In this document: piece by piece, positions 24,712 to 55,883 of the stretch
Position numbering within the stretch: the stretch's first letter is position 1
How the letters are laid out: the number at the start of each line of letters is the position of its first letter
Source of the DNA: a virus
Taxonomy: Duplodnaviria > Caudoviricetes
Strand: one strand, 5' to 3'
Virus record (IMG/VR): IMGVR_UViG_3300035180_001680
DNA length: 64,000 nucleotides
Made by a program: the position numbers and the translations under genes
Notes under the pieces: model-generated
The model's database searches: none
Seen by the model: only the letters and a program-made list of their open reading frames with translations
What the model was told of the DNA's origin: nothing

Positions 24712-25140
24712 ATGGCTACGTATAAAGGGTTTTCAACTAAATTTTATGGAGTTTGTAATACAGTGGTGAATGCTGGTTCATCTATTGTATACCAATCTTC
24801 TCCTGATAGTGGACCAAATGTCAATTTTTCATTAAAAGACGTAAATTTGGTAAAACAAGATATTTTGAATAACATTTGTACGACCAAAGGGTCTAGAGTC
24901 ATGCAACCATCTCAAGGTACTATTATTCCTGATTTGTTATTTGAACCGCTGGATTCAACTTCCTTGGTTATTTTAGAAGATGAAATAACAAGAGTTATAA
25001 ATGCTGACCCAAGAGTTAGTTTACTGAATTTGTCAATAACCCCAAATTATGATTCAAATTCTGTAAGTGCTAACATCATGCTCCAGTTCATCCAACTTAA
25101 TATGGTTTCGGGGTTTGAACTCAATATTCAATTTGAATAA
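24712..25140 (+). CDS. baseplate wedge gp25-like
   Basis: DVNLVKQDILN, KGSRVMQPSQGT...LFEP and DPRV. Confidence 0.88.
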   Translation: MATYKGFSTKFYGVCNTVVNAGSSIVYQSSPDSGPNVNFSLKDVNLVKQDILNNICTTKGSRVMQPSQGTIIPDLLFEPLDSTSLVILEDEITRVINADPRVSLLNLSITPNYDSNSVSANIMLQFIQLNMVSGFELNIQFE

Positions 25141-26702
25141 TTGGGAGTGTAAATCCATACAGAATTTCCACAATCCCAGATTCTTTCATATCCATGGTTC
25201 TTCATATTTTCATATTCAGTGAGGTTAGGGTCGTATCGTTCCAACAAATTTGTTAATTTATGTTTTTGGAACTTGATTCGAGAGTATACTTGAAACAATC
25301 CCTTGGATTGATTAAAATAAAAATAATTTGGAGATGAATCGTGTGTTCGAACAAATCCCAGTTGATTGTATAAATTTCCAGTATTCCATCTTTTATCGGA
25401 ATAACTAACAATTGAAGCAGTTGGGTGCGATTTAACAAATGCTTTAAATAATTTAGAAGGTCCTCCTACTATTGTGGTAAAGAGTTTAGTACTATATCTA
25501 ATTAATTCAAACTGAGCAGATTTGGTATACCTGGTTTTCGAGAATGACATGCATGCAACAAGTTCTTTGTCGAAGAATAATCCTAAATTTACAGAAGAAC
25601 TCCTGCATCCTCCTTGAATATGAGTTTTTTCAAAAAAACTAAACCCTTCTTTAAAAGATATTTCTCGTAACTCACACTGCCTTCCATATATTCGTTGATT
25701 CTTTCCTAACAATGAACAGATTCTTGATTTTACTTTATCTGGGTGATTTATGAATTCATGTTCAAAAACATGGATTAGTCTAATACCTTGTTTTTCACAT
25801 TCTTTAGTTTTGTTTAAGTGATAATTAGGTTCTTTAAACTGTTCACTGTGCCAATATAAACCGTCACACTCAAACGCGAGTTTTAGTGAAGGAATATAAA
25901 TATCAAGTTCTTGTGGAGGAATGATATTTCTACTTTTTCCGCTAATTACCCCCAAAGATTCAACGTAATCTCTGATGTGTTGTTCGAAAGACGAGTTGTG
26001 TGTTTGGGTTGGAATTGAATGTTTGGCTAGTGTGTTTGATATGTGTGCCTGACTAACTCCTAATTCAGATGCAACTGAAAATGTAGATTTGTGTTTATCA
26101 TATAGTTCTTGGAGTATTTGTTTGTTTGATAATACACGTTTAGATTCTATGGAAATCGTTGATTTGTTAAAATTTATATCTCCATACCGCTCCAGCATTG
26201 TTTTTTCTTTTTTCTCACGAACAGTGTCATCCAGATATGCATACTCAACTCCTCTACGATTCAAGTTTGTTTGTTTTCGTTTTATATTTGAATCTGACAC
26301 ACAAAACGCACACGTTTGACTACAATATGTATTAAATGTTTTTTGTGTGGTTGTATTCCATTTTAAGTCATTTCCACAAAAACATTTGGGTGGTGTTGAT
26401 GTGTTATTTTTAATATAATACAATCTTTCTCTTAATGTACTATTGGGAGATAAAAAAGAAGTCGAATTTATTATTTGTTCCCACAATACCTGCATGTTTT
26501 TGTCTCGTGGAGATATTATTTTTCTTGTATCATCAACAATATCACACCATTTTATAATATCATCAATTGTTTTGATGTTGAGAAAAGATTTAACTCTTTT
26601 TGATAACGTGTTGGTGTATATGCTGTGTTCTGATGCTATCAAAGATATTGACTTGGAGGTATATAAAACTTCTGTTATAAGTTCTTCATAATTTATTTTC
26701 AT
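25128..26702 (-). mobile_element. free-standing homing-endonuclease-like gene 1 (Zn finger, HTH, Vsr/DUF559-like nuclease, C-terminal GNAT-like domain)
   Basis: CFC...YCSQTC; RKQTNLNRRGV repeats; ELDIYIP...FECDGLYWHS; C-terminal RIWDCG. Antisense insertion between gp25 and gp6 with its own TATAAATA at 26726-26733. Confidence 0.75.
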
Positions 26703-26808
26703 TTTTGCGTTCTTTTTGATATGTGTATTTATACCGAAAGAAAAGATTTTAACGCATTTCAACCTTTGTGTAACGAATGATAAATATAAAAAACATATGG
26801 ATAATAGA

Positions 26809-29800
26809 ATGAGTGGACGAATAATTTCAGCAGCAGAAAGTTGGGAAACAGTTTATAAAGCATTTCAAGATATAAACTTTACTGCATTTGATTACCAATC
26901 AATAAAAGAGAGTTTAATTGCTTATGTTCAATTATATTTTCCTGAAACATATAATGATTATATTGAAAGTTCGGAATTCATTGCTATTCTTGAATTATTT
27001 GCGTATGTTGGAGAATTAATAACATATCGTGTTGATATGAATTCACAAGAGAATTTTCTTCCTACTGCACAAAGAAAACAATCAATTTTACGCTTGGCAA
27101 AATTAATCTCTTATAAGGCTTCTCGGAATATACCTGCAAGAGGACTCGTAAAACTGACATCAATCTCTACAACTGAACCGATATATGATTCCAATGGAAC
27201 TAATTTATCAGGGACTAAAATAAATTGGAATGATACCTCAAATACGAATTGGAAAGATCAATTTTTGTTGGTTATGGATCATATTTTAACACAACCGTTT
27301 GGTAGTGTATTACCAGATGATCGAGTTCAAGTACAAGATGTATTATTTGAATTGTATACTCTCAATAACGTCCCAACACCAACTGGTGTGTTCCCATATT
27401 CCGTATCTGTTTCTGGAACATCATATCCTATGGAGTTGGTATCGTCGTCTTTAAACAGTGACGGTCCATACGAAAAGCGTCCAGAAATTAACATCCCAAA
27501 TACTCTATTGTATGGTTCAGACGGTCTGGGAGATGGTTCTTCGGGAACTGGTTTCTTTTTCTTCACTAAACAAGGAACTCTTCAATTAGTCCAAAATACT
27601 TTTGATGGAATTACCCCTAACCAAACTTTTGATATTAACAAAACTAATATAAACGAAACTGATGTTTGGATTAATAACGTTGATCCTGTAACACTTCAGA
27701 CAGTGACAGGGAACGAAATCTATACTCGAAATTCAGTTGAGGGGGAGTGGTTCCCCGTCGATTTAGCACAAGCCCAAAACATCATATACAATACCAACGT
27801 AATTCGAAATAAGTATGAAATCGAAACACTTGAAAATGATAACGTTAGAATTATTTTTGGAGATGGTGAATTTGCAGAAATTCCAAGTGGGTTGTTCCAT
27901 TTTTGGGTTAGAACCTCTGCAAACGAAAATGTAGTCATCCCCCAAAGTTCTATTAATAACGTTTCAACGAGTTTCACGTATGTTGACGTTAACGGAATTG
28001 TAAGAACTTGTACATTCACGTTTTCAGCAACGTCGACACTCCAAAATGCTGCTCAAACAGAAGACATTGAACATATTCGTAGAATGGCTCCATCTGTTTA
28101 TTACACACAAGATCGTATGGTCAATGGTCGGGACTATAACACGTTTATGCTTCAAGACCAAACGATATTAAAAATACGGTCATTCAATAGAACATTTGCT
28201 GGTGAATCAAATTATGTTAAGTACGTAGATTTCGTTGATCCTAGTGGAATGTATGACAATATTAAGATTTTTGGTGACGATTTAGCAGTTTATTTATCCG
28301 ATAACATATTATCACTTCCTCCGATAAGCCCTTCCCTGAATGCTGATGTTGTAATCCGTAATTATGTAGAACCGTTATTATCTAATCCAGGGTTGATGTT
28401 ATACAGAACAATGAAGGGTGATGGTATTGATGCAAAAGCTAGAACGTTTACAATAGATGAGTTTAATCTTATTTCTTCTGTTGATTATTCAAACTCTGAT
28501 GGTTATTTGTCATATGATCTTTCTTCACACTCTTGGATTTTGGGTTCAACTAATGATTGGTATATTAAAATTCAAAAAGGTGCAGATATTAACTCCTGGC
28601 TTGTGTCGTACAAAAGTGCTACAATGGTTGCTGAAAGTCCAACAACGAAGTTTTGGTTTAATAATGAAAATCAGGTTATAAATTACGATTCGTTAAATCC
28701 TGGAAATGATGTGTTAGTTTTATTGAAAGCGAATGAGAATAGGGACCGAACAGGAACGATGTTAAACAATACAAACTTAATCATTTTAGATTCTGTTTAT
28801 GTTGAAACAGGAACAGGGCCAACGACTGATATTGGTCTTCCAAACATTAACCAGTTTAGTGTAATCTATGCTGATAACAACGGTGATTTGTTTCCAGACT
28901 TTCCGAGTCCAACCTATGTTCCATTGAGTGATTTTATAAATCCAACTATACAGATAAATGGTGTTTTACCTTTCGCAGCGCTCGCAAGAGATATTAGTCC
29001 AAATTTACTCGGAAGTGATTTATTATATGATGCTGGAACTGTAAACAATTCAGGTAGTTCTTTAACTGTAAACGAATATGTTTATTTTACACGAGCTTCG
29101 TCGGATGATTACTGGACTATTCTTCCAACAAATTATCAAACAGTTGAGTTATTTTCTACTTTTGATGTTGTAGTTGATAATGGTGTTTATATGGACCCAT
29201 TAACTTTTGTTGAATACACGAGAAAAACTGGAAGAAATATGTTGAACTTTATGTGGATGCACAGAACTCCTAATAATCAGTTGGTAGACCCAGCTGCGAT
29301 GAATATAATTGATACGTACATCATTTCAAGAGGATATTATACAAGTATTCGTCGTTGGTTGGATGGGTATCTACAAAGCCAACCAACGGCCCCAACACCA
29401 TTTGATTTAAGAACGTCTTATGCATACTTGATCGACAATAGAATGATTTCAGATAGTATGATTCTCCATTCAGGAAATTTTAAAATTTTATTTGGTAAAC
29501 ATGCTCCTCAAAATCTACAAGCTGTAATAAAAGTAATTCGGTCTCCTCATTCCACGTTAACTGATAATCAAATAAAACTAAAAATTATTGGAACAGTTAA
29601 TACGTTCTTTGATATTTCTCAATGGGATTTTGGTGAAACGTTCTATTTTACGGAATTGGCTGCTGCCATTCATGCCGCATTACCAGTTGATATTGACTCT
29701 GTTGTATTGGTTCCTCTATATTCCACGAATTTCTTTGGAGATTTATTCCAGGTGAACGCGAAACAAGACGAGTTGTTTATTGCTGATGTGACTGTGAACG

Positions 29801-29856
29801 ATATTGAACTTATTAGCTCTATTAGCAGACTCACTATTAAGCAAGGAACAAACTAG
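26809..29856 (+). CDS. baseplate wedge gp6-like (baseplate J family)
   Basis: INFTAFDYQSIK, DYIESSEFIAILELFAY, IIFGDG, EDIEHIRRMAP...QDRMVNGRDY; start at 26797 or 26809. Confidence 0.88.
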   Translation: MSGRIISAAESWETVYKAFQDINFTAFDYQSIKESLIAYVQLYFPETYNDYIESSEFIAILELFAYVGELITYRVDMNSQENFLPTAQRKQSILRLAKLISYKASRNIPARGLVKLTSISTTEPIYDSNGTNLSGTKINWNDTSNTNWKDQFLLVMDHILTQPFGSVLPDDRVQVQDVLFELYTLNNVPTPTGVFPYSVSVSGTSYPMELVSSSLNSDGPYEKRPEINIPNTLLYGSDGLGDGSSGTGFFFFTKQGTLQLVQNTFDGITPNQTFDINKTNINETDVWINNVDPVTLQTVTGNEIYTRNSVEGEWFPVDLAQAQNIIYNTNVIRNKYEIETLENDNVRIIFGDGEFAEIPSGLFHFWVRTSANENVVIPQSSINNVSTSFTYVDVNGIVRTCTFTFSATSTLQNAAQTEDIEHIRRMAPSVYYTQDRMVNGRDYNTFMLQDQTILKIRSFNRTFAGESNYVKYVDFVDPSGMYDNIKIFGDDLAVYLSDNILSLPPISPSLNADVVIRNYVEPLLSNPGLMLYRTMKGDGIDAKARTFTIDEFNLISSVDYSNSDGYLSYDLSSHSWILGSTNDWYIKIQKGADINSWLVSYKSATMVAESPTTKFWFNNENQVINYDSLNPGNDVLVLLKANENRDRTGTMLNNTNLIILDSVYVETGTGPTTDIGLPNINQFSVIYADNNGDLFPDFPSPTYVPLSDFINPTIQINGVLPFAALARDISPNLLGSDLLYDAGTVNNSGSSLTVNEYVYFTRASSDDYWTILPTNYQTVELFSTFDVVVDNGVYMDPLTFVEYTRKTGRNMLNFMWMHRTPNNQLVDPAAMNIIDTYIISRGYYTSIRRWLDGYLQSQPTAPTPFDLRTSYAYLIDNRMISDSMILHSGNFKILFGKHAPQNLQAVIKVIRSPHSTLTDNQIKLKIIGTVNTFFDISQWDFGETFYFTELAAAIHAALPVDIDSVVLVPLYSTNFFGDLFQVNAKQDELFIADVTVNDIELISSISRLTIKQGTN

Positions 29857-29942
29857 TTACCTTTTTATAATGTTTCACTAAACTCCCTTTATAGTGTATA
29901 AATATGGATACAGAGGGAGAGTGTGTTGTGTTGAAACAAATA

Positions 29943-31559
29943 ATGAAATACCATATTGAAACAGGGGGAACAAAAAAATTAACATCTTTGTTAGAAAATA
30001 GACCATTGATACGACAAAGAATTTTAAGTGAAACTTCCTTTTTACCACCAAACTCCCCTCCTGCAGCAAGATTTTTTTGTTTTATCAATAACATTTCACA
30101 ACTCCCCTCCTGTAAAATTTGTGGAAGGCCAACAAAATGGGGACGATTATTTTCCTCCGGTTTTAACACTTACTGTAGCGTTTCTTGTAAAAACAAAGAC
30201 CCCATCCAACAACAGTTGTGTAAAGATGGGGTGATAGCCACATTCGGAGTATCAAATATTAGTAAGGTTCCTTCTATAATTCAAAAGAAACGAGACAATT
30301 CAGTGTTACTCTATGGAGTGTCCAACCCAAACCAATTAGACAGCATAAAGTCTAAAGCGATAAACACAAACTTGCAAAGATATGGTGTTATTCATCCCAT
30401 GTTATTACCAAAGTTTCAACAAAAAGTAAGAAGAACAAACGTTGAACGGTATGGGGTGGATTATATACAACAGGAAGAAAATTTCAAACAAAAAACAAAA
30501 GCGACAAATTTACAAAAATTTTCTCGGGAACATCCTACACAAACACATATTACAGAAGACGCACTAAACAAATTAAATGATCCAGAATGGTTATTTCACC
30601 AACACGTTGAACTTAAACAACCTTTAACACAAATCGCGGAAAGGGTTGGAGTTAATGATACCACAGTGGGGAGATATTTAACAAAATTTGGAATAGAAAC
30701 GAAACACTTTCGTGAGTCTGTTGGACAAAACCAAATATCCCAATTTTTAATTAGTAATGGATTGAAGGTCGAGACGAATGTTAGAAATATTATTGCTCCA
30801 CTGGAATTAGACATATATTTACCCGAGTATAAAATTGCAATAGAATATTGTGGATTGTATTGGCATAGTGAGCAACTTGGAAAAAATTCAACATACCACT
30901 ATAACAAGTATAAATTGTGTTTGGATAAAAACATTCGTCTTTTTACAATATACGAGGATGAATGGTTCACAAAACAAACCACAATACAAGATATGTTGTT
31001 ACATAATCTAAATCGATCCACAAAATCGAGAGTGTTTGCAAGAAAATTATCTATTAAAATGGTTGGAGTGAACGAAAAGAAGAGGTTTTTTGAGCAATAT
31101 CATTTACAGGGGGATGGTCCTGGAAGTATAAATATTGGACTGTTTGAAGACAATTCTTTGGTCGCATGTATATCTGTGATACAAAACAAAGGTGGGGTGC
31201 TGTTGATTAATAGGTATGCAACATCGAAGATTGTTGTTGGGGGATTTTCACGGTTACTGTCTGCTCTGAAAAAACAATACGAGTGGAATGTTATTGAAAC
31301 ATTCGCTGATTTGCGGTATAGTCAAGGACAGTTATATTTGTCTGTTGGGTTTAAAAATGTGAAACAACTAAAACCAGACTATTATTATATAAAAAATAAT
31401 ATACGATATCATAAATTTAATTTTAGACGAAAATATCTGCCACTTCGGTTAGACAATTTTGATTCTTCTTTAAGTGAAAAACAGAACTGTGATGCTGATG
31501 GAATTCTTCGATTGTGGGATTGTGGAAAAATCAAATTCCAAACTTTTAAAAATTGGTAA
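29943..31559 (+). mobile_element. homing-endonuclease-like gene 2 (same family)
   Basis: CKIC...YCSVSC; TNLQRYGV repeats; ELDIYLPEYKIAIEYCGLYWHS; RLWDCG; TATAAATA at 29897. Confidence 0.75.
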
Positions 31560-31613: not shown

Positions 31614-31644
31614 ACCTAAACAGTTGTTATTTTTGGTGTGGTAT

Positions 31645-34600
31645 ATGACAGATAATTCAGATTACAAAAAACCAAGGACTAACCTTGTAGAGCTTTTACC
31701 AGACACGTTTAGAACAGACGTTAATAATTCATTTTTAGAAAATGGCCCAAATCGTTATTTAACGAAGTCCGAGTTAACACCTACGTTTGGAACTATTGGA
31801 AAAAAATCAACACGTTATAGTAAAAGCACAAGAATACCTGAACCATCTGTTCAACGTCAGGCCTACCAACTTCAACCACTTTTAAACTCAACGATCGCAA
31901 CTGTTAATTATCTATCTTCTTATGCTGACATTTTAACAAAAGCTTCTGATTTGGGAGTTGATCCAGAACGTTTACCGTTGTGGGGGAACACAACACAGTT
32001 TAATTTTGCACCACCTGTTGATTTTGATAAACTTGTTAATTGGGGAAAATATTATTGGTATGATCCTGCCGGTTCAGCACCTCAATATATAACAATAAAA
32101 AACACTTGCGCGAGTGCTGTGGCTCGGGTTAATGTTTTAACATCGAGTATAGCAAGCTATATTGCTGGAGGACCGGCACCAGGAGTATCTCAATCAGAAT
32201 TTGACACCACTGTTGCTCAAATGCAATCCGAACTCTCACGGCTTCAAATTATTAGAGATTGCGCTTGTTATAATGGAAGGGTTGGTTGGGATATGACACA
32301 GTGGGATGACAATTCTCTCAATTGGTGGCACATAAATGAATTTACTGCAGAACCACCTACTGGTCCTATAAATACAGCACCATCATCTCCTCCACTATAT
32401 TCATTGTGGTTTGATACTGATGCCAAGCAATTTAAACGATGGATGGGAAGTAGTTGGGTTAGTTATGATAATATATCTGAACTTACTGTTGGTTCTACTG
32501 TTTATACTTTTAACCCATTTTTTTGGTATGATATTAACGACGTTGATAAAATTAACGACTCAGATCCGATTGGAACGCCACCCCGTCCAAAACTAAGAGC
32601 ATGGGATGGAGAAAAATGGGTTCTCTTTGCTCCTTCTGATTTATCTTCGGGAATTTTTCCATGGGACTCTGTTGAATCTTCTCTCTGTGTAACCCAAACA
32701 GATGATTGGTCTGCCCAAAATAAGTGGTACCACCAAGCGGATGTTCCAAATATTTCATTGGCAATTAGAGCAACAATGCCAATTATTGAGTATAATCCGA
32801 ATATTGAATTAAACCAGTGGTCATATACAAAATATAAATGGTCGTACAGAGGAAGTTATCTACAAGATTGGATAAGCGTAGATAGTGAACCAACACTTTA
32901 TGAAATGGGTATAAAATTTAAAGTTTTAGGTATATCGACTTCTACAATATCAAACCCTGGAACAATTACTGTTGATGGTGATCATAGAAGTATGCTTCAA
33001 CCTGGGAACAAAATCCACGTCAATGAAGTACCTTCCTCTGTATTCACATTAACGATATATCAAGCAGATACGACTCACGGTCCAGGTAGTGATGGTTATG
33101 ATCCTGAAACAAACACTACTAAATTTTTAGTAGTAGAAGATACAGCACAAGTCATATTGGGATTAACAACTGATACAACAGTCGATTTTGTTCTTACCAC
33201 AACGAGTCTTGGTGACACTTGGGTAAGTTTCTTCTCACAATGGGCTTTAACAGAAACACCAACTCCGGTTCCTGTGAATCTTCAAACCCGTCCAACAGTA
33301 ATTCCTCAATTGTCATTTGGACCTTTACCTACTGCTGGATATAACACTTTTGTACTCCCTGATCTTTTCTTGGTTGGTAGAGATACTATTCGTGTTTATG
33401 TTGACGGAAAACGTCAATACGGAACGTATATTGAAGGATGGAGTACAAACATCCCCGGGGAGTACATTTCTGGGAACTTTACTGGGGCCAACGATCCATC
33501 GTATTCCAATATTGCTGAAACGGCAGTCGTTTCGTCTACTGGACATTCATATCCTGGAACACACGGGAATACAATTCAGTTCTTTGATCCTGTTTCTCAA
33601 TTTTCAAATGTATCGATAGAAACAATTCCAGCGGCACTGAGCGATCAATATCTATCTGAGATAGAAGTAAGAACTTCTACAGATGCAAATTTTTATACAA
33701 CAAACTTTAGTTCAATTTTTACAACTCTAATTAAATATCGTCTTGTTGAACAAATCAAAACCGAACAAACACAATATCCATTATTTGATATTTTTAATGT
33801 TGATGGAACAACAACCTATACAGCCAACAATATCTTTGGGTTTCAGGAAGGATCAACATATTCTGTGGATCCTAGAGTTGGTCGAAGAATTGCGGTCACC
33901 AATAATGGAAAAGAATTTGGTTTTGAACAACAATTACTTAATACTGACACAGGTGCAATAACTTGTTATAAAGATTCTTGGGCTATTGAAACTTCAAACC
34001 CCGCTGGGCTTCAAAGTATTTGGAGACGTGGAATTCCTGAATCAGATTCTCAATATGTTCCAAAACAAAGAAATGAGTATCAATTAGCTTATGGAGATTC
34101 ATATGTTGATTCTAATGGAGTAAAACGGATTGCTGGAATTGATACACCTTTGGGTCCAACAGATTGGGAAATTCCAAGTCAGATGATGTTTAACATTCAT
34201 CATGAAAACCGAAAGGTTGTGTTATTTTCAGAGATATATACTCACTTTACGTCTATTATTAATGCTCAAACCCCTCCTGTTGAGTTTAGTTCTGCAACTT
34301 CTGATTTTTATAGATTGTTAAATATACCAAACTTTGGTGTTGGTGGGACTATAAAAGAATTTAATGATAGTTATGACACATTCTTATCTGCAATGTTTCA
34401 AACGTCAACGAATCCAAGAGCTATTATTGATTTTGCTCGTTCTCGATATGATTACAATCTAACACTTCTACAAGAATACTTTTTACAGAATGCCATTTTG
34501 TTACTTACAAATATGAGCGATCCTTTCTATCAGGATATTAATAAAGCTATTTCTGATTACGTTATAACATTGTTTGAACAGAATGAATTCCTCGATAATT

Positions 34601-37600
34601 CATTTGGTGATTCAACTACACACAACACGTTAACAGGACTTGGTATTAAAAATTGGATAACAACTCTTCCATATTTAAAACTATCACGTCCAGTTGTTCC
34701 AGCAATATTATTTGATGTAGATTTGGGAATTAAACAGGTTCTTCATCATGATGGACATATTTCCAATATCTCTGTTCCGTCGTCAACATCAAAATCGATT
34801 TATACGAAACTGTTACAGTCAACAAACGGAGTTCAAGGTCCAATAACAACGCGCCCTGTTTGGCCGACGGTACAAAAAGGACAATATTGGATGGACACGG
34901 GTGGGGTGTTGTACAGATTTAATGTTATTAGTACATCTGGTGGAGCACCTTCGATTTTTAATCCAGTAGGAACATATTGGTTAGATGGAACAAGTGGACT
35001 TTTATATGTTAGAACGAACTCAGTACCACTTGGCTGGGAGATCGTTAAAGACAAAAATGGCCATATAACTCCAGGATATATTGAACCAGCTTGGAAACCA
35101 ATTGTATTGGAAGAAATTATAGCGAATGTGATTTATCAAGCTGAACTTAAATTATATGAAGCTGTTCCAGATTTTGATTCCACAGTGTTTGATTTTTCAA
35201 CACTACTATCATCAACATCTGAACAAGATGTATTCGTTACATATTTAAAAGAACAATACTTTGATTATATTCAACAGACTAACAGTAATCCATCTGTTAA
35301 CAATTTTGATATAAGCAATCCGTTTACATGGAACTATAACTCTATTTCTCCGAGTTATATTCCAGCTGTTAAAGTCGGTTCACCAACTATATGGGATGCG
35401 AGCTACCAAGGAATATATGAGAAAAACTTTGGAACGCAGTATCCACATCTTTTGCCTTGGAAATTACAAGGATATTATAACAAACCAACTTGGTGGGATA
35501 GTCAATACAAAGACACCTCTGGTCTCCGCCGTTGGACGAATTCGATGTGGAATAATATTAAAAATGGAATAATTCCCGTTGGAGCTTTACTTCCGGACAA
35601 CATCACAGTTGGAACTGGGTTAGTCGAATCTCCTACACAAGCACCGGTATACAATTTTATGTGTGTTGACACATCAACCGATACATTGCTTGCTCCATAT
35701 GTTCAAGGGAATACTAACACTTTCCTTAATAGTGTTAGTATTATCAACCAATATATCCCATCATTCTCTGACCCATTCTCTTTTGGTCAACAGGGTGTTA
35801 CGGAATATACCTGGAGAAATTCTTCTTATTTCCTATATGGATTGTTACATATTGCATTTAGAATGCAACCCGTGAGATTCCTACATGATGTGTTTGGACC
35901 AACATTTATCAACGTTGCTGGATTGCAAATTGATAACAGAACTAAAAAGGTTTACTCACACAAAGACGCAATATTCCACGGAGATTTGAATTCCGCTGAT
36001 CAGAATATTGTATTAAACGGATTAAATCAGTGGTATGTAAACTTTATTAGATTCAACAATCTTGATATAAACACTTCTGATTTTAAAGAGAAATGGATTA
36101 ATTGGAATGCAAACTTAACATACCAAACTGGCTCTTTTATTAATTCCAAATCTTTGGATGTTGCTGCAGATTATTTTTCTATTATACCTCAAGATTATCA
36201 AGTTCTTATTAAGAAAACTCCTGATATGAAAAATTTCTGGGTAGATGCTTTATTAGTAACGACAGAATCTGTAGGAACGGATTGGACTTTAAATCATAAC
36301 AACAAAGTTCCAAAATACTATGGTTCAGATTGGGTGTTTAGGTTGAGTACACCATCACCAATTGGACACACGATTAATTATTATGGTATTAAGAGTTATC
36401 CGTGTTCGTTTAATACAATTAACGACGTTGGTTCCACTATTGGTGCTATTGTGCTTCCATGGGCAAACGTTGCTGGAACACCAATCCCAGGAGAAGATAT
36501 TCTTTATGTTCAAGACGATACGTTGACATGGTTTACTGGTTCACCAGTTCAGGTAACTTCGGCAGAACTTTATCCAACTCCTCTTGCACCAAACACAACA
36601 TATTACATTATAAAAGTTGCTGATAACCAATTCAAACTTGCATCTTCGTATAATAACGCTGTTAATGGAATTTCAATTGATATAACCAGTCCTGGTTCAG
36701 CGGTATACATTGAAGAGTTAGTTGGAACATTTGTTGCTTTAGACGGAACACAAACATCAAATATATGGAAACACATTGCACTCGACAAGAGAACAACGAA
36801 TACAAGTCTTGTTCCAATGTATGTTACTGGAGTCCAATCGGTTATCAATTTAATTGATGGGTATTCAAATTGGTTAATGGACCAAGGGTGGGCTTTCAAT
36901 GAACCAGAAGCAGTAGAAGTTGATATCCAAACTGGAAAAATTTTGAATTGGCAAACAGAAATTGAACGTTTAATTGGAAGAATTTATTCTGGTTTAGGTT
37001 TGGTTACTATTCAAGGCAACCCAACGTCACCAGGTAGTATTTCAGTATTAGGTAATTTGATTCAAGGGGTGGGTTACTCGTCAGGAAAATATATTAATAT
37101 TCAAACTGAAACCATTACCGGAACAGGTTCAGGGGCAACTGTTAATATTGTGGTACAAGACAATAAGGTATTTTCTGTAAATATTAACAAAATTGGAATG
37201 CAGTATAATACGGGTGATACTATCTCTGTCCTTGGAGCTAACTTTGGAGGTGGAGACGATATAATACTTACAGTACTAAACGTTTTCCCAGTGTCGCTCA
37301 ATCAACCAATTTCAGGAGAAGTCTTACATGAAGTTAATCCTTTCAGAAACAATATATGGTTTAAAACACCACGAGGAATAATATCGAATATATATTCACA
37401 ATCTTATTCAGATGTTCGTGTTGATTCCACAGTATATGATCAGTTTGGAGATACTCTTCCAAGTTCATCTGTTTTCATATTTCGAGAAGACACGAAGAGT
37501 CGTATCAGAGAATGCTTTCTTTGTGGAAGTGTGTATTCGCAGTCAGGGGCGGTAAATTCAAACCAAGATGCAGCTATTAATCCGTATACCACTCCTCATT

Positions 37601-40341
37601 TAGGTGGTGCACACTTGTTCCTGGATGGGTATGAACATGCAATTGTTTTTAATGATTATACAACCGATGGTTTCTTAATATTTGATCCATTTATCGGATT
37701 GAGTACAAGTAAATTCACTCTTGCCTTTGAAAAAGGTGCTGCTTATACGTTTAGACCAAACATAGGTGGTTATTTCTTAAATGGTGAACAAACAGTTCAA
37801 AACATTGAAAATACTGTTGACAATATGCAATTGTATTATGATACGTTTAAAGTAAATGAAACTGCTGACTTTCTTGATTACGCTCGTGCTGCTTTAGGAT
37901 ACGAATCACCAGATTACCTTGACAATATCGGTATTAATTCAAAATCTAAATTTATATTTTGGAGAGGTATGATTCACAACAAAGGATCAATTAACGCAGT
38001 TAAAGCTTTTATTAATGCAAGATTGTTTGTTGACGCAAAAATCGACGATTTTTGGGCTTACAAAGTTGGTGAGTTTGGAAATCTAACAAGAAAATATTTT
38101 AATGACATTAACATTGAACCTGAAGATATTAAGAAAAATGAATTAAGGTTAGAATTCGCTTCTTCAAATATCGATCCAACCTTCATAACGATTACACCAA
38201 CAGATGATGTTCGTTGGGAATATTTTCCTGATCAGCGTTCTACGATAAATCCAACATTAGATTTTTATTTTAGTGCTGGTGTGATTGGTGTTATTACTGG
38301 AACATGCAATGGAAGTCCTGTTGACGTAATACTACCAAACAATGATGGTTATCAAGTTGTGAAATTTGATCCAGTTACAAAAATCTCTTCTGTTTTGGTA
38401 AGTGGCGTTTCTCAACTTAACAACAACCATATTACTATTACAAGTTCTGATAACTTTAATTATTCTGTTTATGTGTTTTCTGTTTCAAAACAAAAACACA
38501 ATCCAGCAAAGTTAATAGATAAACAATCCAAGGATGTGATATCGTCTATTATGATTTGGCATCCAGCTGTTGGATTCCATTATCAAGTTCCTATAAGTTT
38601 AATCGATATACAACGTGATAATGATCCAGCAACGTATAACAATACCATTTCATCTGGATTAACAGGAACTATGTATTATCAAGAAGAATTTGTTCCAAGA
38701 ACAAATTGGAATTCACAGGAAGTTGGAAAGATTTGGTTGCGAACTAGCTCATTTGGATATACACCATACTATGATCCAATAGTTTATCCTAACGTTAGTG
38801 ATAGAATTACAAACTGGGGCAAACCTACAGATTGGAGTTCTTTTGATGTCTTACAATGGACTGAATCTCCTGTAACTCCTGAAAATTGGGACGCGTATGT
38901 AATATCACAAGCATCTAATACAGAATTAGACCAGTATTCATTACCTTCTGGAACTCCGATGAAAGTAATTTATAGACGTGTCAATATTAACACAGATTCT
39001 ACTTTACCACCAACTTATTCAGATTATCAAAGAATAGACACAAATCCAAGAATTCAGGTTTTATATGATACTATTAGTAGTGTTTCAGTATTCCCAGTTC
39101 AATTTTTAGAACAAATTGATTTAAGGTTGGATCATAACATTGATAATGGTCAAGTTGTAAACGTTTATGTTAATGGAATATTAAAAACGACCACACACAC
39201 AACTTCTATAATAAGTACGATTTTAAATGAACCACCAACGAATCCTATGGACAAAGATTCGTATAAGGTTGGAACAATTCCGACTGGAGATTGGACACCA
39301 TTCGCAATTGGTGATATCGTTCAGTGGAATGAAACAACCTCGAGTTGGGATGTGTTAACCACTGGTGCTGAGTTTGATGCTCTTTCCAGTGTGGGTGCTT
39401 ATGTTACTTTTGATCCAACAACATTAAACGTTGGTGACACGATTACATTTGAATATCCTTTATTTAATGTTGATGTTTCAACTCTTCCGAACACGATGAT
39501 TGAATATACTTTATTTACACCATACACCAGTGTTAATACAATAGACAATCAAGGAAACATAGTAGACACAAAGTATTACTTCTGGGTTATGAATAAGAAC
39601 GTTAGACCAACGGCAACCACACTTTCATTATCTGAAATTAAATCCTTGTTGAAAGTTCCGTCAGTACCATATATGTTTATGTTGGGTATTGATGGAACAC
39701 TCCAACGTTTCAATAGTGTTGTAATCAGAGGAATTTCAAGATTTATTTCACAAAACGACAGATTTAAAGTTCGTTTCCAAACAGACGCATCTCTCCGTGA
39801 TGATAGTGATATTTCTTCCAGTCTAACAAAGAAAAATGTTCATACACAATGGGAATTGTTTAGACAAGAACAGAACGTTGTAATATCCAGAACGTTGTGG
39901 AATAAATTAACAGAGTCTGTCGTAGGATATAAGTTACATGACGATAATACTCCTGTTCCATCTTTGGATAGGGTTTTATATGATCAATTAAATGGTAGTG
40001 CAACGAGAATTGGTATGGGAGAAGGTCAAAGTTTTGTAGATAAAGATTTGGCTCTAAATACAATTATTAATGAAATTGAAAATCCAAATTATGATTTATC
40101 TCCTATTGACAAATCAGCATTTCTCGATACATACAGTTTCGATACACCAGAGAATATTTTGACTGCTATGGATTACATTTATAACACTTTTGCATACTCT
40201 GATACCAATAGAATATTTTTCTCATGTCTCCACGATGCAATGTCACTAAAAAGTGAATATGGAGACATATTTAAAACTTCAGCCATTGCGTTGCATGGAA
40301 TAAAAATATTAGAAACTTCAAAAGAGGCAATGAATGGCTAA
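31645..40341 (+). CDS. very large baseplate wedge/structural protein (~2900 aa)
   Basis: Late promoter, position after gp6, FNFAPPVDFDKLVNW and WRGMIHNKGS motifs, internal fibre-like modules. Confidence 0.75.
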   Translation: MTDNSDYKKPRTNLVELLPDTFRTDVNNSFLENGPNRYLTKSELTPTFGTIGKKSTRYSKSTRIPEPSVQRQAYQLQPLLNSTIATVNYLSSYADILTKASDLGVDPERLPLWGNTTQFNFAPPVDFDKLVNWGKYYWYDPAGSAPQYITIKNTCASAVARVNVLTSSIASYIAGGPAPGVSQSEFDTTVAQMQSELSRLQIIRDCACYNGRVGWDMTQWDDNSLNWWHINEFTAEPPTGPINTAPSSPPLYSLWFDTDAKQFKRWMGSSWVSYDNISELTVGSTVYTFNPFFWYDINDVDKINDSDPIGTPPRPKLRAWDGEKWVLFAPSDLSSGIFPWDSVESSLCVTQTDDWSAQNKWYHQADVPNISLAIRATMPIIEYNPNIELNQWSYTKYKWSYRGSYLQDWISVDSEPTLYEMGIKFKVLGISTSTISNPGTITVDGDHRSMLQPGNKIHVNEVPSSVFTLTIYQADTTHGPGSDGYDPETNTTKFLVVEDTAQVILGLTTDTTVDFVLTTTSLGDTWVSFFSQWALTETPTPVPVNLQTRPTVIPQLSFGPLPTAGYNTFVLPDLFLVGRDTIRVYVDGKRQYGTYIEGWSTNIPGEYISGNFTGANDPSYSNIAETAVVSSTGHSYPGTHGNTIQFFDPVSQFSNVSIETIPAALSDQYLSEIEVRTSTDANFYTTNFSSIFTTLIKYRLVEQIKTEQTQYPLFDIFNVDGTTTYTANNIFGFQEGSTYSVDPRVGRRIAVTNNGKEFGFEQQLLNTDTGAITCYKDSWAIETSNPAGLQSIWRRGIPESDSQYVPKQRNEYQLAYGDSYVDSNGVKRIAGIDTPLGPTDWEIPSQMMFNIHHENRKVVLFSEIYTHFTSIINAQTPPVEFSSATSDFYRLLNIPNFGVGGTIKEFNDSYDTFLSAMFQTSTNPRAIIDFARSRYDYNLTLLQEYFLQNAILLLTNMSDPFYQDINKAISDYVITLFEQNEFLDNSFGDSTTHNTLTGLGIKNWITTLPYLKLSRPVVPAILFDVDLGIKQVLHHDGHISNISVPSSTSKSIYTKLLQSTNGVQGPITTRPVWPTVQKGQYWMDTGGVLYRFNVISTSGGAPSIFNPVGTYWLDGTSGLLYVRTNSVPLGWEIVKDKNGHITPGYIEPAWKPIVLEEIIANVIYQAELKLYEAVPDFDSTVFDFSTLLSSTSEQDVFVTYLKEQYFDYIQQTNSNPSVNNFDISNPFTWNYNSISPSYIPAVKVGSPTIWDASYQGIYEKNFGTQYPHLLPWKLQGYYNKPTWWDSQYKDTSGLRRWTNSMWNNIKNGIIPVGALLPDNITVGTGLVESPTQAPVYNFMCVDTSTDTLLAPYVQGNTNTFLNSVSIINQYIPSFSDPFSFGQQGVTEYTWRNSSYFLYGLLHIAFRMQPVRFLHDVFGPTFINVAGLQIDNRTKKVYSHKDAIFHGDLNSADQNIVLNGLNQWYVNFIRFNNLDINTSDFKEKWINWNANLTYQTGSFINSKSLDVAADYFSIIPQDYQVLIKKTPDMKNFWVDALLVTTESVGTDWTLNHNNKVPKYYGSDWVFRLSTPSPIGHTINYYGIKSYPCSFNTINDVGSTIGAIVLPWANVAGTPIPGEDILYVQDDTLTWFTGSPVQVTSAELYPTPLAPNTTYYIIKVADNQFKLASSYNNAVNGISIDITSPGSAVYIEELVGTFVALDGTQTSNIWKHIALDKRTTNTSLVPMYVTGVQSVINLIDGYSNWLMDQGWAFNEPEAVEVDIQTGKILNWQTEIERLIGRIYSGLGLVTIQGNPTSPGSISVLGNLIQGVGYSSGKYINIQTETITGTGSGATVNIVVQDNKVFSVNINKIGMQYNTGDTISVLGANFGGGDDIILTVLNVFPVSLNQPISGEVLHEVNPFRNNIWFKTPRGIISNIYSQSYSDVRVDSTVYDQFGDTLPSSSVFIFREDTKSRIRECFLCGSVYSQSGAVNSNQDAAINPYTTPHLGGAHLFLDGYEHAIVFNDYTTDGFLIFDPFIGLSTSKFTLAFEKGAAYTFRPNIGGYFLNGEQTVQNIENTVDNMQLYYDTFKVNETADFLDYARAALGYESPDYLDNIGINSKSKFIFWRGMIHNKGSINAVKAFINARLFVDAKIDDFWAYKVGEFGNLTRKYFNDINIEPEDIKKNELRLEFASSNIDPTFITITPTDDVRWEYFPDQRSTINPTLDFYFSAGVIGVITGTCNGSPVDVILPNNDGYQVVKFDPVTKISSVLVSGVSQLNNNHITITSSDNFNYSVYVFSVSKQKHNPAKLIDKQSKDVISSIMIWHPAVGFHYQVPISLIDIQRDNDPATYNNTISSGLTGTMYYQEEFVPRTNWNSQEVGKIWLRTSSFGYTPYYDPIVYPNVSDRITNWGKPTDWSSFDVLQWTESPVTPENWDAYVISQASNTELDQYSLPSGTPMKVIYRRVNINTDSTLPPTYSDYQRIDTNPRIQVLYDTISSVSVFPVQFLEQIDLRLDHNIDNGQVVNVYVNGILKTTTHTTSIISTILNEPPTNPMDKDSYKVGTIPTGDWTPFAIGDIVQWNETTSSWDVLTTGAEFDALSSVGAYVTFDPTTLNVGDTITFEYPLFNVDVSTLPNTMIEYTLFTPYTSVNTIDNQGNIVDTKYYFWVMNKNVRPTATTLSLSEIKSLLKVPSVPYMFMLGIDGTLQRFNSVVIRGISRFISQNDRFKVRFQTDASLRDDSDISSSLTKKNVHTQWELFRQEQNVVISRTLWNKLTESVVGYKLHDDNTPVPSLDRVLYDQLNGSATRIGMGEGQSFVDKDLALNTIINEIENPNYDLSPIDKSAFLDTYSFDTPENILTAMDYIYNTFAYSDTNRIFFSCLHDAMSLKSEYGDIFKTSAIALHGIKILETSKEAMNG

Positions 40342-49343: not shown

Positions 49344-49359
49344 TTTAAGGAGGCATGTT

Positions 49360-49995
49360 GTGAAATTTTATGGTGACTTAAATTTAAACGATAACCAAGC
49401 TCAACAAATGGCTTTGCAAGTTGAAGCAGATTTTCCCTTAACACCTGTTGTAGGAAGAATTACCTTTAAAGGTAAACGAGTTTGGATTTGTATTCAGGCT
49501 GGTGTAAACACTATTTGGGTTCCATTAGGACCAAAACATGACACATTTGTGTTAACACAGTCTACGCCAAGCACTTCTTGGACAATTCAACACAATTTCA
49601 ACACAACAACTGCAATAACAACAACTCCAATATATCCTCTTGTTCAAATATTTGATGATACGAACAATCAAATTATTCCAGATGCAATACATTATGTGGA
49701 CGATTCCTCTATTATGGTTACATTCAATACAGCTGCATCGGGAACTGCTGTTTGTATGTATGGAGATGATAATTTGTATGGAGGTTTAATTACTCCACAA
49801 TATGCATACGAATATACACAATCAACACCATCAGCCACTTGGGTTGTTCGTCATTGGTTAGGTTATGTTCCTAATGTTCGTGTATTCAATGGTACTGGAG
49901 AAGAAATTCAACCTTATTCCATTAAAGTTGATGATGCTTTTCAGGTCACAATAACATTTACCAGTGCAATTACTGGTGTTGCTAAACTGGTTTAA
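49360..49995 (+). CDS. structural protein (shared N-module plus two HNL domains)
   Basis: AAGGAGG then GTG 49360; WTIQHNFN and WVVRHWLG domains. Confidence 0.7.
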   Translation: MKFYGDLNLNDNQAQQMALQVEADFPLTPVVGRITFKGKRVWICIQAGVNTIWVPLGPKHDTFVLTQSTPSTSWTIQHNFNTTTAITTTPIYPLVQIFDDTNNQIIPDAIHYVDDSSIMVTFNTAASGTAVCMYGDDNLYGGLITPQYAYEYTQSTPSATWVVRHWLGYVPNVRVFNGTGEEIQPYSIKVDDAFQVTITFTSAITGVAKLV

Positions 49996-51200: not shown

Positions 51201-52721
51201 ATGTTAAAAAGTATTTTAAAACAAAATGGTATTCTAACTGAAAAAGGAATTTCTAATAATTATAAAAGAATATTAGTTAAACATCCTTCGATTGAACAAC
51301 AAATAATTGATTTTACTAAATTTCTTGATATAGAAGATTATTTACCTTCTATGAAAGAACGGTTATTGTGTATTTTCAAAGACATAACTTCGGTTCCTAG
51401 ATGTCCACAATGTGGGAAGATTTCATCATTTGTTCAATCTTCGTATAGAACTTTTTGTTCCTCAATATGTGCTCAATCCAATATTCAAACAAGAAATAAA
51501 CACAAACAAACTATGTTAAAAACATATGGTGTGGAATATGGGGGACAAACAGATGAACAAAAACAAAAAAGAAAAAATACTTGTTTGTTTCGTTACGGAG
51601 TTGATCATCATTGGAAAAATTCATCCATTCAACAAAAACGCATCAATACATTTGCTTCAAATTATGGAGTAATAAACCCTCAACAACAATACTTTAGTGA
51701 TGAAACTTTGTCGTTGTTAAATGATATAAATTGGTTGACGCATGAACACCATGTTTTACAAAAATCGTGTGCAGAAATATCCAACAATCTACAAGTAAAT
51801 CCTACCACAGTTTCGAATTACTTACACAAGTACAATATTCCTATTAAACATTTTAATACATCACTTGCTCAACGAGAAATTGGTTCATTTCTTCAAAATT
51901 TCACCTCCGTGGAACTCAACAATAGAACAATCTTAACTTCTGGTAAAGAAATTGATGTTTTTTTACCAGATTATAATATTGCTATAGAATATTGTGGATT
52001 GTATTGGCATAGTGATTATTTTGAACGTAACACCAAAAATTCACATTTAAATAAATTAAACGAATTGTTACTTAAAGACATTAGATTAATAACAATTTTT
52101 GAAGATGAGTGGACACTAAAACAGGATATAGTAAAATTGAAATTGCTTGCGATATTAGGAAAAGACCCTCGTAAACGGGTATTTGCTAGACAAACATATA
52201 TATCTAATGTTTCAACACAAGAAAAACAAATATTTTTTGAAAATACTCATATTCAAGGTAATGGTCCAAGTTCTATTAATATTGGTTTGTATGATACACA
52301 CGAACTAGTTGCTTGTATGGGATTAATCAAACAAAAAAATAATAGATATATAATTAATAGATATTCTACTTCTGCACAAGTTGTGGGAGGTTTTAGTAAA
52401 CTACTAACATATTTTATTAAAAACTATAATCCCACGCAACTTGTATCTTTTGCTGACAGAAGATGGGGAGAAGGGAATTTGTATCACAAAACTGGTTTTA
52501 GTTTGGAGTATATCATTACTCCTGATTATCATTATGTTGTTAATCACAAACGAATACACAAATTTAATTTTAGACACAACAATCTTAAAAAAATTCTTAC
52601 TAAGTATGATGAACACTCGAGTGAAGTTGTTAACTGTAAAAATAATGGAATTTTTAGAATATGGGATTGTGGGTTAATAAAGTTCACCATAAATACAGCA
52701 CAACGTGGAGAAACACAATGA
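51201..52721 (+). mobile_element. homing-endonuclease-like gene 3 (same family)
   Basis: CPQC...FCSSIC; KQTMLKTYGV; EIDVFLPDYNIAIEYCGLYWHS; RIWDCG; CATAAATA at 51170. Confidence 0.75.
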
Positions 52722-53865: not shown

Positions 53866-54321
53866 TTATCTTGTTCGACCTCGAGCAGGTGCTTTAGCAG
53901 TTTCAACAGCGGCTTGTAATTGACTTGAATCTGTCATTGGTGCCATTGGTTCTGATTGGTTGTTTGCAAACGTGGTTTGGTTTGAATATGGGCCTTGTGC
54001 TTGAACAGGTGTTCCGTATTGTCCACTTCCAAATGGTAGAACTTGTCCTGATGGAGTTCTAACTTTAACAAGTTGGTTAAAATACGTCAAAGCATTAACG
54101 CCGTTACCAAGTGTGATTTGAGACATCAAATCCCAGAGTTCGTAAAGTTCAGCATTACGGTTACGAAGAATCTTCAATAACCGTTGTTTATCAACCATAT
54201 CAAGTGGTTTAATTGGGAAAAACCAAACATGACCATCATTCGAACGTTTCATGATTGCACATTCAGTTAAAATTCCACCTTCCAATTCCAGCCATTCAAT
54301 GTTTCTATATTTTCCTTGCAT
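53866..54321 (-). CDS. conserved hypothetical phage protein
   Basis: AAGGAG before ATG 54321; globular N-terminal part with a low-complexity tail. Confidence 0.75.
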   Translation of the reverse strand: MQGKYRNIEWLELEGGILTECAIMKRSNDGHVWFFPIKPLDMVDKQRLLKILRNRNAELYELWDLMSQITLGNGVNALTYFNQLVKVRTPSGQVLPFGSGQYGTPVQAQGPYSNQTTFANNQSEPMAPMTDSSQLQAAVETAKAPARGRTR

Positions 54322-54395
54322 TTGTTTCTCCTTAAATGTGTTATGCATATGCATGACAAATATTTACACTAAGAAAAAAAGAAGGAACCAATCGT

Positions 54396-55883
54396 TTATG
54401 GTTTCCAAGTCCACACATCATTGCCACAATCCCATATACGATCATAACCACTATTGATCATATTATTCCATTCAGTTTTAAGTGGATCGAATAAATCCAA
54501 TTTTTCACTCAATTTGTGTTTCTGAAATACGTTCCTTGAGTATAGTTGATATGGATTGTTTCTGTGAAAATACCAATAATTGGGTGAACTTGTGTGGGAT
54601 AATGTAAACCCCAAATTTAAATATACTCCTCCTGTGTTATATCGTTTATCGCTATAGGATATTACAGACGTGGGAGATTTTTCTAAAATGAAGTGTTTAA
54701 ATAATTTAGATGCACCCCCCACAACAGTGGTGTTAAGTTTTGAAGCAAATCGGATTAATTCGTACTCTTCTTTTCCATATCGCGGTTTTCCAAAAGTCAT
54801 AACACTTACTAATTTATTTTCAAACGTAAGACCTATGTTATAAGAACTACCAACATCACCTTGAATATGATACGCATTCATAAAATTTCTTCTTTCTGAA
54901 AAATTAACATTTACGATATTACATTTTCGGGCGTATATTTTTTCAGTATTTTTATTTAATAATGATAAAATTCTCGATTTTACAATATCTTTTTTATTAA
55001 TCCACTCAACGTCTATAATGTGAATTAATCTAATACCATGTAAATTTAACATATTTGTTTTGGATATATGATATGTTCTGTTTTTTCCATTCAATTCACT
55101 ATGCCAGTATACTCCATCAATTTCTATAGCAATTGAGTATTCTGGAAGATAAACATCTACTTCTGGTCCAAACTTTTTTACTCTCGTTTGTACTTCGATT
55201 CCAAGTGAAGCAATAAAATCGCAAACTTCACGTTCTGGTTGAGATTGGAAATGTTGTTGAACGGCGATATCAAACAAATTGAATCGTTTTTGGATTAATG
55301 ACGGACTTACGTTAAGTTCTGTTGCAATCTGAATTAAGGATTTATTTTTATTCTCTTCAGTTAACCAACCTGGGTCATCAATTTTGTGTAAAATGTCTTT
55401 AATTTTAAATGTGTTTGGATAAAGACCATCTCGTAATAAATTATTTTTTTCTATTTGATCATTCTTGTGTTTATCTGATCCCAAGTAGCTTGATGTTCCG
55501 TATCTTTCAACCATTGTAGATTGAATCTGGTGCTGAATAGATGGAACTTTTGCTGGGATTTTTTCCCCATATTTATCTTCCATTTTTTGGTAATATTTTT
55601 CTCTTATTTCAGGAACTTTTTGAACACACGAGCGACAATATGTTGCATAGTGTTTTTTGCCTTGACTAAATTGAATTAAGTTAGAACAATACCCACACGT
55701 TGGAGATTCACTTATATTATGTAATATGCAATAAAGTCGTTCATATGTTGAAACGTGTTCAGGTAAAAATTTTGTTAATTCTCTGATTCGGTTAAATAAA
55801 AATTCATGTTTGTTTATAATTTTATTATACGACGGAGATATAGTTAATTTACCATTCCGTTGTATAAAAAGGTTATATTCCAT
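54396..55883 (-). mobile_element. homing-endonuclease-like gene 4 (same family)
   Basis: CGYC...YCRSC; TMVERYGT; EVDVYLPEYSIAIEIDGVYWHS; RIWDCG. Confidence 0.75.

Follow-up and report, generated by a model that had tools for sequence, protein, structure and literature searches.

Four open reading frames of 500-551 aa are present in the 64,000-nucleotide stretch of DNA analysed here (the window), which belongs to an 84.9-kb IMG/VR fragment of an uncultured jumbo myovirus with a CheckV completeness of about 25%. ORF calling and alignment indicate that all four frames are intact and share one architecture, in which a four-Cys zinc finger is followed by 23-aa KxTxxxRYG repeats (DUF7487), a helix-turn-helix (HTH), a Vsr/EDxHD-type nuclease and a C-terminal GNAT domain (Table 1). 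The initial annotation had described these ORFs as paralogs of common design, and they are real: in a profile search all four matched PHROG 3339 ("homing endonuclease") with E-values from 8e-105 to 6e-120, far beyond chance. Likewise, every motif that it had listed is found in the alignment, namely the four Cys, ExD...ExxGxYWH, ELxRY/F, VVGGxSKL, SYxDxRW, GxxY, GF and RIWDCG. The starts given there for copies 1, 2 and 4 (26702, 29943 and 55883) are in-frame internal ATGs, as plausible as the longer starts.

Table 1. Coordinates of the four genes, their predicted domains and the genes flanking insertion sites 1 and 2 (residue numbers refer to each protein).
Feature	Coordinates	Strand	Details
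gp25-like baseplate wedge gene	24712..25140	+	left flank of insertion site 1
Copy 1, probable Hef-type homing endonuclease gene	25128..26762	-	544 aa from TTG, 524 aa from ATG at 26702; phrog_3339 E 6e-120
Copy 1, Mom-like GNAT domain	25143..25697	-	H381, R422, S436, D456, R458, Y465; PF25680 E 0.023
Copy 1, nuclease domain, Vsr/EDxHD-type	25698..26000	-	E285, D287, E298, H305
Baseplate wedge gene	26716..29856	+	phrog_10646; between insertion sites 1 and 2
Copy 2, probable Hef-type homing endonuclease gene	29904..31559	+	551 aa, alternative ATG at 29943; five 23-aa repeats; phrog_3339 E 6e-116
Copy 2, nuclease domain	30708..31022	+	E301, D303, E314, H321
Copy 2, Mom-like GNAT domain	31026..31550	+	H400, R437, S449, D469, R471, Y478
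2905-aa virion structural protein gene	31624..40341	+	right flank of insertion site 2
Copy 3, probable Hef-type homing endonuclease gene	51201..52721	+	506 aa; phrog_3339 E 8e-105
Copy 3, nuclease domain	51852..52169	+	E250, D252, E263, H270
Copy 3, Mom-like GNAT domain	52173..52697	+	H350, R387, S399, D419, R421, Y428
Copy 4, probable Hef-type homing endonuclease gene (modelled copy)	54396..55898	-	500 aa from GTG, ATG at 55883; phrog_3339 E 4e-115
Copy 4, Mom-like GNAT domain	54399..54944	-	H344, R383, S397, D417, R419, Y426; helical insertion 455-482; phrog_1384 E 7e-6
Copy 4, nuclease domain	54945..55253	-	E246, D248, E259, H266; I-Bth0305I (3r3p) match
Copy 4, four-Cys zinc finger	55623..55703	-	C68, C71, C88, C91; weak YacG-like matches

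All four genes lie between other genes, as had been noted, but the further claim that three of them sit in the structural block holds for copies 1 and 2, which are within the baseplate module, whereas copies 3 and 4 are flanked by genes with no functional match. In about 16 distant relative loci the hub, gp25-like, wedge and giant-protein genes are adjacent, with no Hef-like gene between them, and at those junctions the window contains inserts of 1.6 kb and 1.8 kb that hold copies 1 and 2, the former separating the gp25-like gene from the wedge gene in opposite orientation and the latter lying between the wedge gene and the gene for the 2905-aa virion protein. Copies 1 and 2 are demonstrable insertions into a conserved gene order, and the initial view of selfish mobile nuclease genes is supported. 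For sites 3 and 4 no relatives were found for comparison except a near-identical contig, and the sole close relative (96-99% aa identity) has the same four copies in the same places. Scans of viral and metagenome sequences yielded no closely related allele free of the homing endonuclease gene (HEG), only near-identical HEG-bearing contigs or relatives with at most 50% aa identity, and megablast of the neighbouring 8.7-kb gene against known phages gave no match. No tRNA genes were found in the window, and scanning the surroundings of copies 1 and 2 for promoters and terminators gave results no better than those from shuffled sequences.

Matches obtained by tblastn are annotated as "Hef-like homing endonuclease" in Acinetobacter, Klebsiella and Bacillus phages; matches in further phages, among them those of Campylobacter and Dickeya, carry the annotation homing endonuclease. 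Judging from an identity among them of only 17-52% per domain, the four paralogs are old, and the family tree divides them among three lineages, with copy 3 as sister to copy 2; copy 4 shares 55% identity with its nearest foreign protein, more than with any paralog. A 530-aa relative with 40% identity over the nuclease and GNAT domains lies between nrdA and nrdB of a T4-like phage, a site that we take to be the position reported for hef of phage U5 by Sandegren et al. (2005). When the GNAT domain was used alone as query, 12,888 cluster representatives were retrieved at E<=1e-10, and at 156 of the 159 places where it occurs in viral loci it is immediately preceded, in frame, by the nuclease; this domain is a fixed part of the Hef-type gene. 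A search for stand-alone GNAT genes, covering short proteins (of which 191 were found as possible candidates) and the 159 viral-locus occurrences, gave no evidence of autonomous function. The stand-alone GNAT that could be traced to a long contig (L024) proved to be the 3' part of a Hef-like gene that an insert of 1.25 kb interrupts, and a search of this split gene for a group I intron gave none.

The repeats of the N-terminal region have a period of 23 aa and number about 2 to 5 per protein, varying among the four, and they are matched by the Pfam family DUF7487 with E-values of 1e-5 to 4e-17. The four Cys of the zinc finger are invariant across all four copies in the alignment, HTH families were matched at sub-threshold Pfam scores in three copies, and in the AlphaFold (AF2) model of copy 4 this region is made up of helical repeats plus an HTH, modelled for the most part at pLDDT values over 85. 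The nuclease had been called Vsr-like, in agreement with the match between the profile of copy 4 and the catalytic domain of I-Bth0305I (3r3p; E 5e-7) and with the fold match between the AF2 model of this copy and the same structure (TMt 0.81-0.82, rmsd 2.3-2.6). D248 of copy 4 aligns with D196 of I-Bth0305I and H266 with H213; furthermore all 124 relatives retain D248, E259, H266, H277 and K280 (copy 4 numbering), as do all four copies at the corresponding positions. Hef-type enzymes were assigned to the EDxHD family by Taylor et al. 2011.

For the C-terminal domain a GNAT fold related to Mom of phage Mu had been proposed, partly on the basis of a Mom segment, SFADER..G.VY.A.NF, which is correct. 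With the AF2 model of copy 4 (pLDDT 92.7) as query, the top Foldseek match is Mu Mom (8bv8; E 5.5e-6), and in VIA Mom gives a Z of 13.5 with an rmsd of 2.6 over 140 aligned residues, one of the longest of the listed alignments, although it ties by Z-score with generic GNATs, many of which score 12.5-14.1. Profile-profile alignment by hhalign of the Hef profile against a 30-sequence Mom profile gave an E-value of 5e-5 with a probability of only 67%, and a weak match (E 0.017) against the single Mu Mom sequence. All four copies are under the gathering score of the Pfam Mom family (PF25680), only copy 1 matching it, at 14.8 bits against a cut-off of 27.1; among relatives PF25680 is the sole GNAT-type Pfam family matched (14 of 53, best E 1.3e-10). 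The GNAT of copy 4 also matches phrog_1384 (E 7e-6), and its model places helices 455-482 between strands 448-454 and 485-489. As judged from sequence and model, the C-terminal domain belongs to the Mom lineage of GNATs, Mom being its nearest relative both by sequence and in Foldseek, as initially suggested.

Mom is a Gly-tRNA(Gly)-dependent adenine N6 modifier, in which the roles of H58, R111, S124, D149, R151 and Y159 have been described (PMC13219725). The hhalign register pairs these residues with H344, R383, S397, D417, R419 and Y426 of copy 4, and equivalents of all six are present in all four copies, so that the pocket of the Mom-like domain is probably a working one in each of them. Across 124 relatives the equivalents of H58, R111 and Y159 are kept in 100%, and those of S124, D149 and R151 in 83%, 94% and 89%, respectively, all six positions being far above the mean column identity of 30%. 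Substitutions at the equivalents of S124 (21 relatives), D149 (7) or R151 (14) occur in 37 of the 124 relatives (~30%), all with intact nucleases, and represent at least 26 independent changes on the family tree; the T4-like nrdA-nrdB relative, for example, has N at the D149 position. The strictly invariant residues of the GNAT domain are H344, Q346, R383, Y426, R487, W489 and C491 (copy 4 numbering), and copy 4 carries in addition a basic motif, R455-F458-Q-K-H-K.

Based on these comparisons, we consider that the four ORFs are, with a probability of about 85%, free-standing Hef-type homing endonuclease genes of the Hef branch of the EDxHD/Vsr-like PD-(D/E)xK family, located between genes of a jumbo myovirus. 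In such a system a long DNA site would be recognised jointly by the zinc finger, the HTH and the 23-aa repeats and, in a co-infecting genome devoid of the gene, cut by the Vsr-like domain; recombinational repair of the cut genome would then bring in a copy of the Hef-type gene together with its flanks. Hef of phage U5 is the sole Hef-like enzyme for which the literature, through secondary citations, supports site-specific cutting close to the gene's own locus together with gene conversion in mixed infection, and it reportedly also cuts the DNA of its own phage (Sandegren et al. 2005). That the four copies are instead decaying or domesticated remnants, no longer mobile nucleases, seems very improbable: the closest relative contig does have the same four copies in the same places at 99% identity, with no presence/absence polymorphism seen, but in the window the four frames are intact, the key residues of nuclease and GNAT and the four Cys are kept, and real decay looks otherwise, as in the split relative of contig L024.

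Within the Hef-type reading, the part played by the GNAT domain is divided among several hypotheses. It may, with less than even probability in our estimate, acylate or aminoacylate DNA close to where the enzyme is bound; the narrower version, in which it would be an active DNA modifier, possibly aminoacyl-tRNA-dependent, that marks adenines at or near the element's own target, is rather unlikely in our estimate. If the latter were true, the element-bearing genome would acquire site-specific immunity, or repair would be biased, and a homing endonuclease with a chemical antidote built in would exist in thousands of phage genes. A different use of the same chemistry is cut-and-protect by a single chain, in which the Mom-like domain would modify adenines of its own phage and the nuclease destroy unmodified DNA of host or competitor, the genes being weapons akin to single-polypeptide (Type IIG-like) restriction-modification enzymes rather than, or besides, homing elements. 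Such a role was already predicted (Iyer et al. 2021, PMC7824862), and it is consistent with the retention of the six Mom active-site equivalents in four copies that share only 17-52% identity, with the conservation of these positions far above the column mean, with a helical insertion that in the model appears to correspond in position to the essential HTH-like insertion of Mom, and with a nuclease-GNAT fusion that is almost never broken. Nevertheless, an antidote is expected to be conserved no less strictly than the poison, and the variation of the S, D and R positions, including the N of the nrdA-nrdB copy, next to a nuclease core that is intact in all relatives argues against obligatory self-protection. 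Long modular DNA-reading regions and intergenic insertion suit rare-cutting homing enzymes and not genome-wide restriction. The cleavage of its own phage's DNA that is attributed to Hef points in the same direction, and we regard cut-and-protect as doubtful.

Alternatively, the GNAT domain could be non-catalytic and only clamp DNA, flip bases as a Mom-derived reader, or dimerise the enzyme, pairing two nucleases for a double-strand break, a possibility that we entertain with less than even confidence. Mom dimerises tightly and its DNA cleft is positively charged (PMC13219725), and I-Bth0305I, which is without such a domain, requires dimerisation for activity (Taylor et al. 2011); moreover, positions essential in Mom are repeatedly substituted where the nuclease is intact, and the seven invariant residues together with the basic motif could serve binding. 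On the other hand, equivalents of S, D and R are found in 83-94% of relatives and in the four copies, which is beyond the needs of a scaffold, and the Mom dimer residue W48 aligns in the hhalign register with S334 and is not kept. Some other role altogether accounts for what remains of our expectation.

The assignment of these genes accounts for approximately 6 kb of a jumbo-phage fragment and for two breaks in a conserved baseplate gene order. The Hef-type homing endonuclease is a very common selfish phage gene, and the window adds four examples with the complete Mom-type residue set and no new kind of system; the novelty implied by the initial annotation does not stand, as the architecture is standard for the Hef-like family and both the Mom-REase fusion and the cut-and-protect idea are published (PMC7824862). 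The wider question is the role of the Mom-like domain in a very large family of selfish nucleases, which is now testable, the chemistry and the essential residues of Mom being known (PMC13219725).

Among known systems, the closest are Hef of phage U5 and Hef-like enzymes such as F-LimIII, VII, VIII and X of Dickeya phage LIMEstone1 and the genes of Acj9 and CP220, with others in Acinetobacter, Klebsiella, Vibrio and Campylobacter phages. The window genes resemble them in belonging to PHROG families 3339 and 559, in the nuclease and C-terminal core (30-52% identity by tblastn), in standing free between genes and in often occurring in several copies per genome; they differ in that their sequences are new (the nearest foreign protein being that of copy 4 mentioned above), in the number of 23-aa repeats and in an uncultured host phage. 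The EDxHD prototype I-Bth0305I (3R3P) has a homologous catalytic domain (32% identity) that, as in the window proteins, is preceded by N-terminal DNA-binding modules including an HTH, but it is intron-encoded, has 266 aa with the nuclease at its end, and contains neither a GNAT domain nor a zinc finger. Mu Mom (PF25680; 8BV8) has in common with the window proteins the GNAT fold, apparently (from the model of copy 4) the helical insertion before the last strand, the six active-site equivalents and the segments ELxR and SxxDxR..G.VY...F, whereas identity is only ~15-18%, the window proteins are under the Pfam cut-off, W48 is not kept in them, and Mom stands alone while the window domain is fused to a nuclease. 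In addition, the loop preceding the Ser in the window GNAT, VVGGxS, is nearer to the classical CoA-binding GNAT motif than that of Mom, and the donor could therefore differ from that of Mom. A literature search found no paper explicitly naming a link between Hef or homing endonucleases and the Mom GNAT. Mom-REase fusions in jumbo phages, together with the cut-and-protect prediction, were described by Iyer, Anantharaman, Krishnan, Burroughs and Aravind in 2021 (PMC7824862), and the window genes share with them the pairing of domains, the jumbo-phage setting and that hypothesis. In that work, in which the name Hef is absent as far as searched, the fusions are treated as restriction-like conflict systems, whereas the copies in the window are here assigned to the Hef-type homing family, and synteny gives evidence that copies 1 and 2 were inserted.

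The four ORFs (copies 1-4, numbered by window position) are new members of a known and very common kind of gene, and the window reveals no new mechanism. Each of them hit PHROG 3339, 'homing endonuclease' (E 8e-105 to 6e-120), as well as PHROG 559. Relatives were found by tblastn in 416 records of known phages, many annotated as 'Hef-like homing endonuclease'; a single Campylobacter phage genome can have as many as 12 such places, and one 462-kb uncultured phage has 9. The ORFs exist as described in the initial annotation, whose shorter coordinates correspond to internal ATGs in the same frames; the motifs listed there are all common to the four copies, which align end to end, and the proposed paralogy is old, with 17-52% identity depending on the domain. 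The 84.9-kb virus record, about 25% complete according to CheckV, carries only these four copies.

Locations of the Hef-type copies and of the other genes discussed (window coordinates unless prefixed; L023, Escherichia phage vB_EcoM_G8; L024, IMGVR_UViG_3300045921_000730)
Feature	Location	Strand	Remark
Copy 1	25128-26762	-	intact ORF
Copy 2	29904-31559	+	intact ORF
Copy 3	51201-52721	+	intact ORF
Copy 4	54396-55898	-	intact ORF
2905-aa virion structural protein gene	31624-40341	+	directly 3' of baseplate wedge gene
~60-aa module gene	45035-45601		
~60-aa module gene	45992-48838		module at C-terminus
~60-aa module gene	48933-49343		
~60-aa module gene	49276-49995		module occurs twice
Six-gene array	60226-63931	-	head-to-tail paralogs
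Relative between nrdA and nrdB	L023:2218-3810		530 aa
Split Hef-like gene	L024:1731-4639		1.25-kb insert inside nuclease domain
ORF in the L024 insert	L024:2706-3959		417 aa

Pfam matches in the copies comprise DUF7487 (the 23-aa KxTxxxRYG repeats), HTH families below threshold, and REase_MTES_1575 or Vsr in the nuclease. The family profile matched the catalytic domain of I-Bth0305I (3r3p, E 5e-7), of which D196 and H213 align with D248 and H266 of copy 4. In an AlphaFold model of copy 4, built from a 53-sequence alignment (mean pLDDT 92.7), the nuclease part gave a TMt of 0.81-0.82 against 3r3p in Foldseek, and the top Foldseek match of the model was the Mom protein of Mu (8bv8, E 5.5e-6), with generic GNATs ranking next. 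Many GNATs likewise scored Z 12.5-14.1 in VIA-align, Mom itself reaching Z 13.5 over 140 residues, among the longest alignments listed. Given these matches to the model, we regard a GNAT fold as certain for the predicted C-domain.

The GNAT fusion is widespread: the domain alone matched 16,748 cluster representatives at a threshold of E<=1e-3, and 12,888 when this was tightened to E<=1e-10. Among the best 150 matches it nearly always forms the C-terminal end of a protein of 340-880 aa, and the nuclease lies in frame directly upstream in 156 of the 159 occurrences with upstream room (136 viral loci). Short 'stand-alone' GNAT matches occur; one such case, a 212-aa protein in L024, was traced and rejected, being the downstream piece of a Hef-like gene split by an insert. 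The ORF in this insert had no Pfam or PHROG match and no match to an Rfam group I intron, and the 244-kb contig carries at least four further Hef-like copies.

More distant relatives provide about 16 loci, some of them the same contig present in two collections, in which the order hub, gp25-like, wedge and giant protein is unbroken, with gaps ranging from small overlaps to 540 bp, no Hef-like gene between these genes, and a wedge protein 27-50% identical to that of the window. The window has a 1.6-kb insert at the gp25-like/wedge junction, containing copy 1 on the opposite strand, and a 1.8-kb insert at the wedge/giant junction, containing copy 2. The giant protein is itself conserved in patches (21-41% identity) in all relatives keeping the hub, gp25-like and wedge order. 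The only close relatives are contigs at 96-99% amino acid identity, one of which (72.7 kb) has all four copies; since they carry the copies at the same sites, no empty site was found at high identity, and for sites 3 and 4 no further relatives were found beyond these contigs. In the family tree copy 2 is the sister of copy 3, and copy 1 and copy 4 each cluster with proteins from other genomes, suggesting that the genes were acquired several times or were duplicated very long ago.

Two further gene groups were observed in the window. Four neighbouring genes share a ~60-aa module (phrog_21918 / 24148; 29-46% identity); one PHROG label notwithstanding, it is probably a repeated virion-protein domain and not an HNH nuclease. 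The members of the six-gene array (180-232 aa, 62-78% identical pairwise) differ in length through insertions of about 26 or 52 aa; no Pfam family scored above its cut-off for them, and PHROG assigned them no function.

The initial annotation had proposed a mobile element that pairs a nuclease with a Mom-like GNAT domain modifying or sensing DNA, and that may protect itself in the manner of a one-gene restriction-modification unit. This interpretation is partly supported. The likeness to Mom holds, but the idea is already published: Iyer et al. 2021 predicted that momylation shields the phage's DNA and that the nuclease is directed at other DNA (PMC7824862). Our literature search found no paper naming 'Hef' and 'Mom' together. 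Beyond the GNAT fold, the specific relationship to Mom rests on sequence, namely a profile-profile comparison with 30 Mom homologues (E 5e-5, probability 67%), phrog_1384 'Mom-like' against copy 4 (E 7e-6), and PF25680, the sole GNAT-type Pfam family matched, which was hit by 14 of the 53 relatives (E 1.3e-10 at best). Mom moves glycine from Gly-tRNA(Gly) onto adenine N6, and its pocket comprises H58, Y59, R111, S124, D149, R151 and Y159, of which R111, S124 and R151 are essential, activity being greatly reduced by D149A (2026 Mom paper, PMC13219725). In the hhalign register six of these correspond to H344, R383, S397, D417, R419 and Y426 of copy 4, whereas Y59 is replaced by I345; the six residues, those of the nuclease and the four Cys are kept in all four window copies.

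Across 124 family members, a sample whose 120 relatives are the best matches to copy 4 and not a random draw, all five core residues of the nuclease (D, E, H, H and K) are invariant, as are three GNAT residues (H, the first R and Y), while substitutions occur at Ser in 21 members (mostly to Gly), at Asp in 7 and at the second Arg in 14, affecting 37 proteins. At least 26 changes are needed to explain these substitutions on a FastTree phylogeny of the nuclease and GNAT regions, which is poorly resolved (support below 80% on 47 of 121 inner branches). Even so, variation at these GNAT positions beside an intact nuclease is the opposite of the pattern expected for an antidote fused to a poison.

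Among free-standing homing endonucleases, the Hef-like enzymes form a recognised class (LIMEstone paper; T4 mobile-DNA review), placed in the EDxHD, Vsr-like family by Taylor et al. 2011. In the T4-like coliphage vB_EcoM_G8 a relative that shares 40% identity with copy 4 over the nuclease and C-domain lies exactly between nrdA and nrdB. This site is reportedly also that of U5 hef (Sandegren et al. 2005). The four window copies, with all Mom-type residues intact, are good candidates for bench testing; the vB_EcoM_G8 copy has Asn at the position of Mom D149 (SYGNRRW instead of SYSDKRY), which suggests that the best-studied Hef type may be without Mom-like chemistry.
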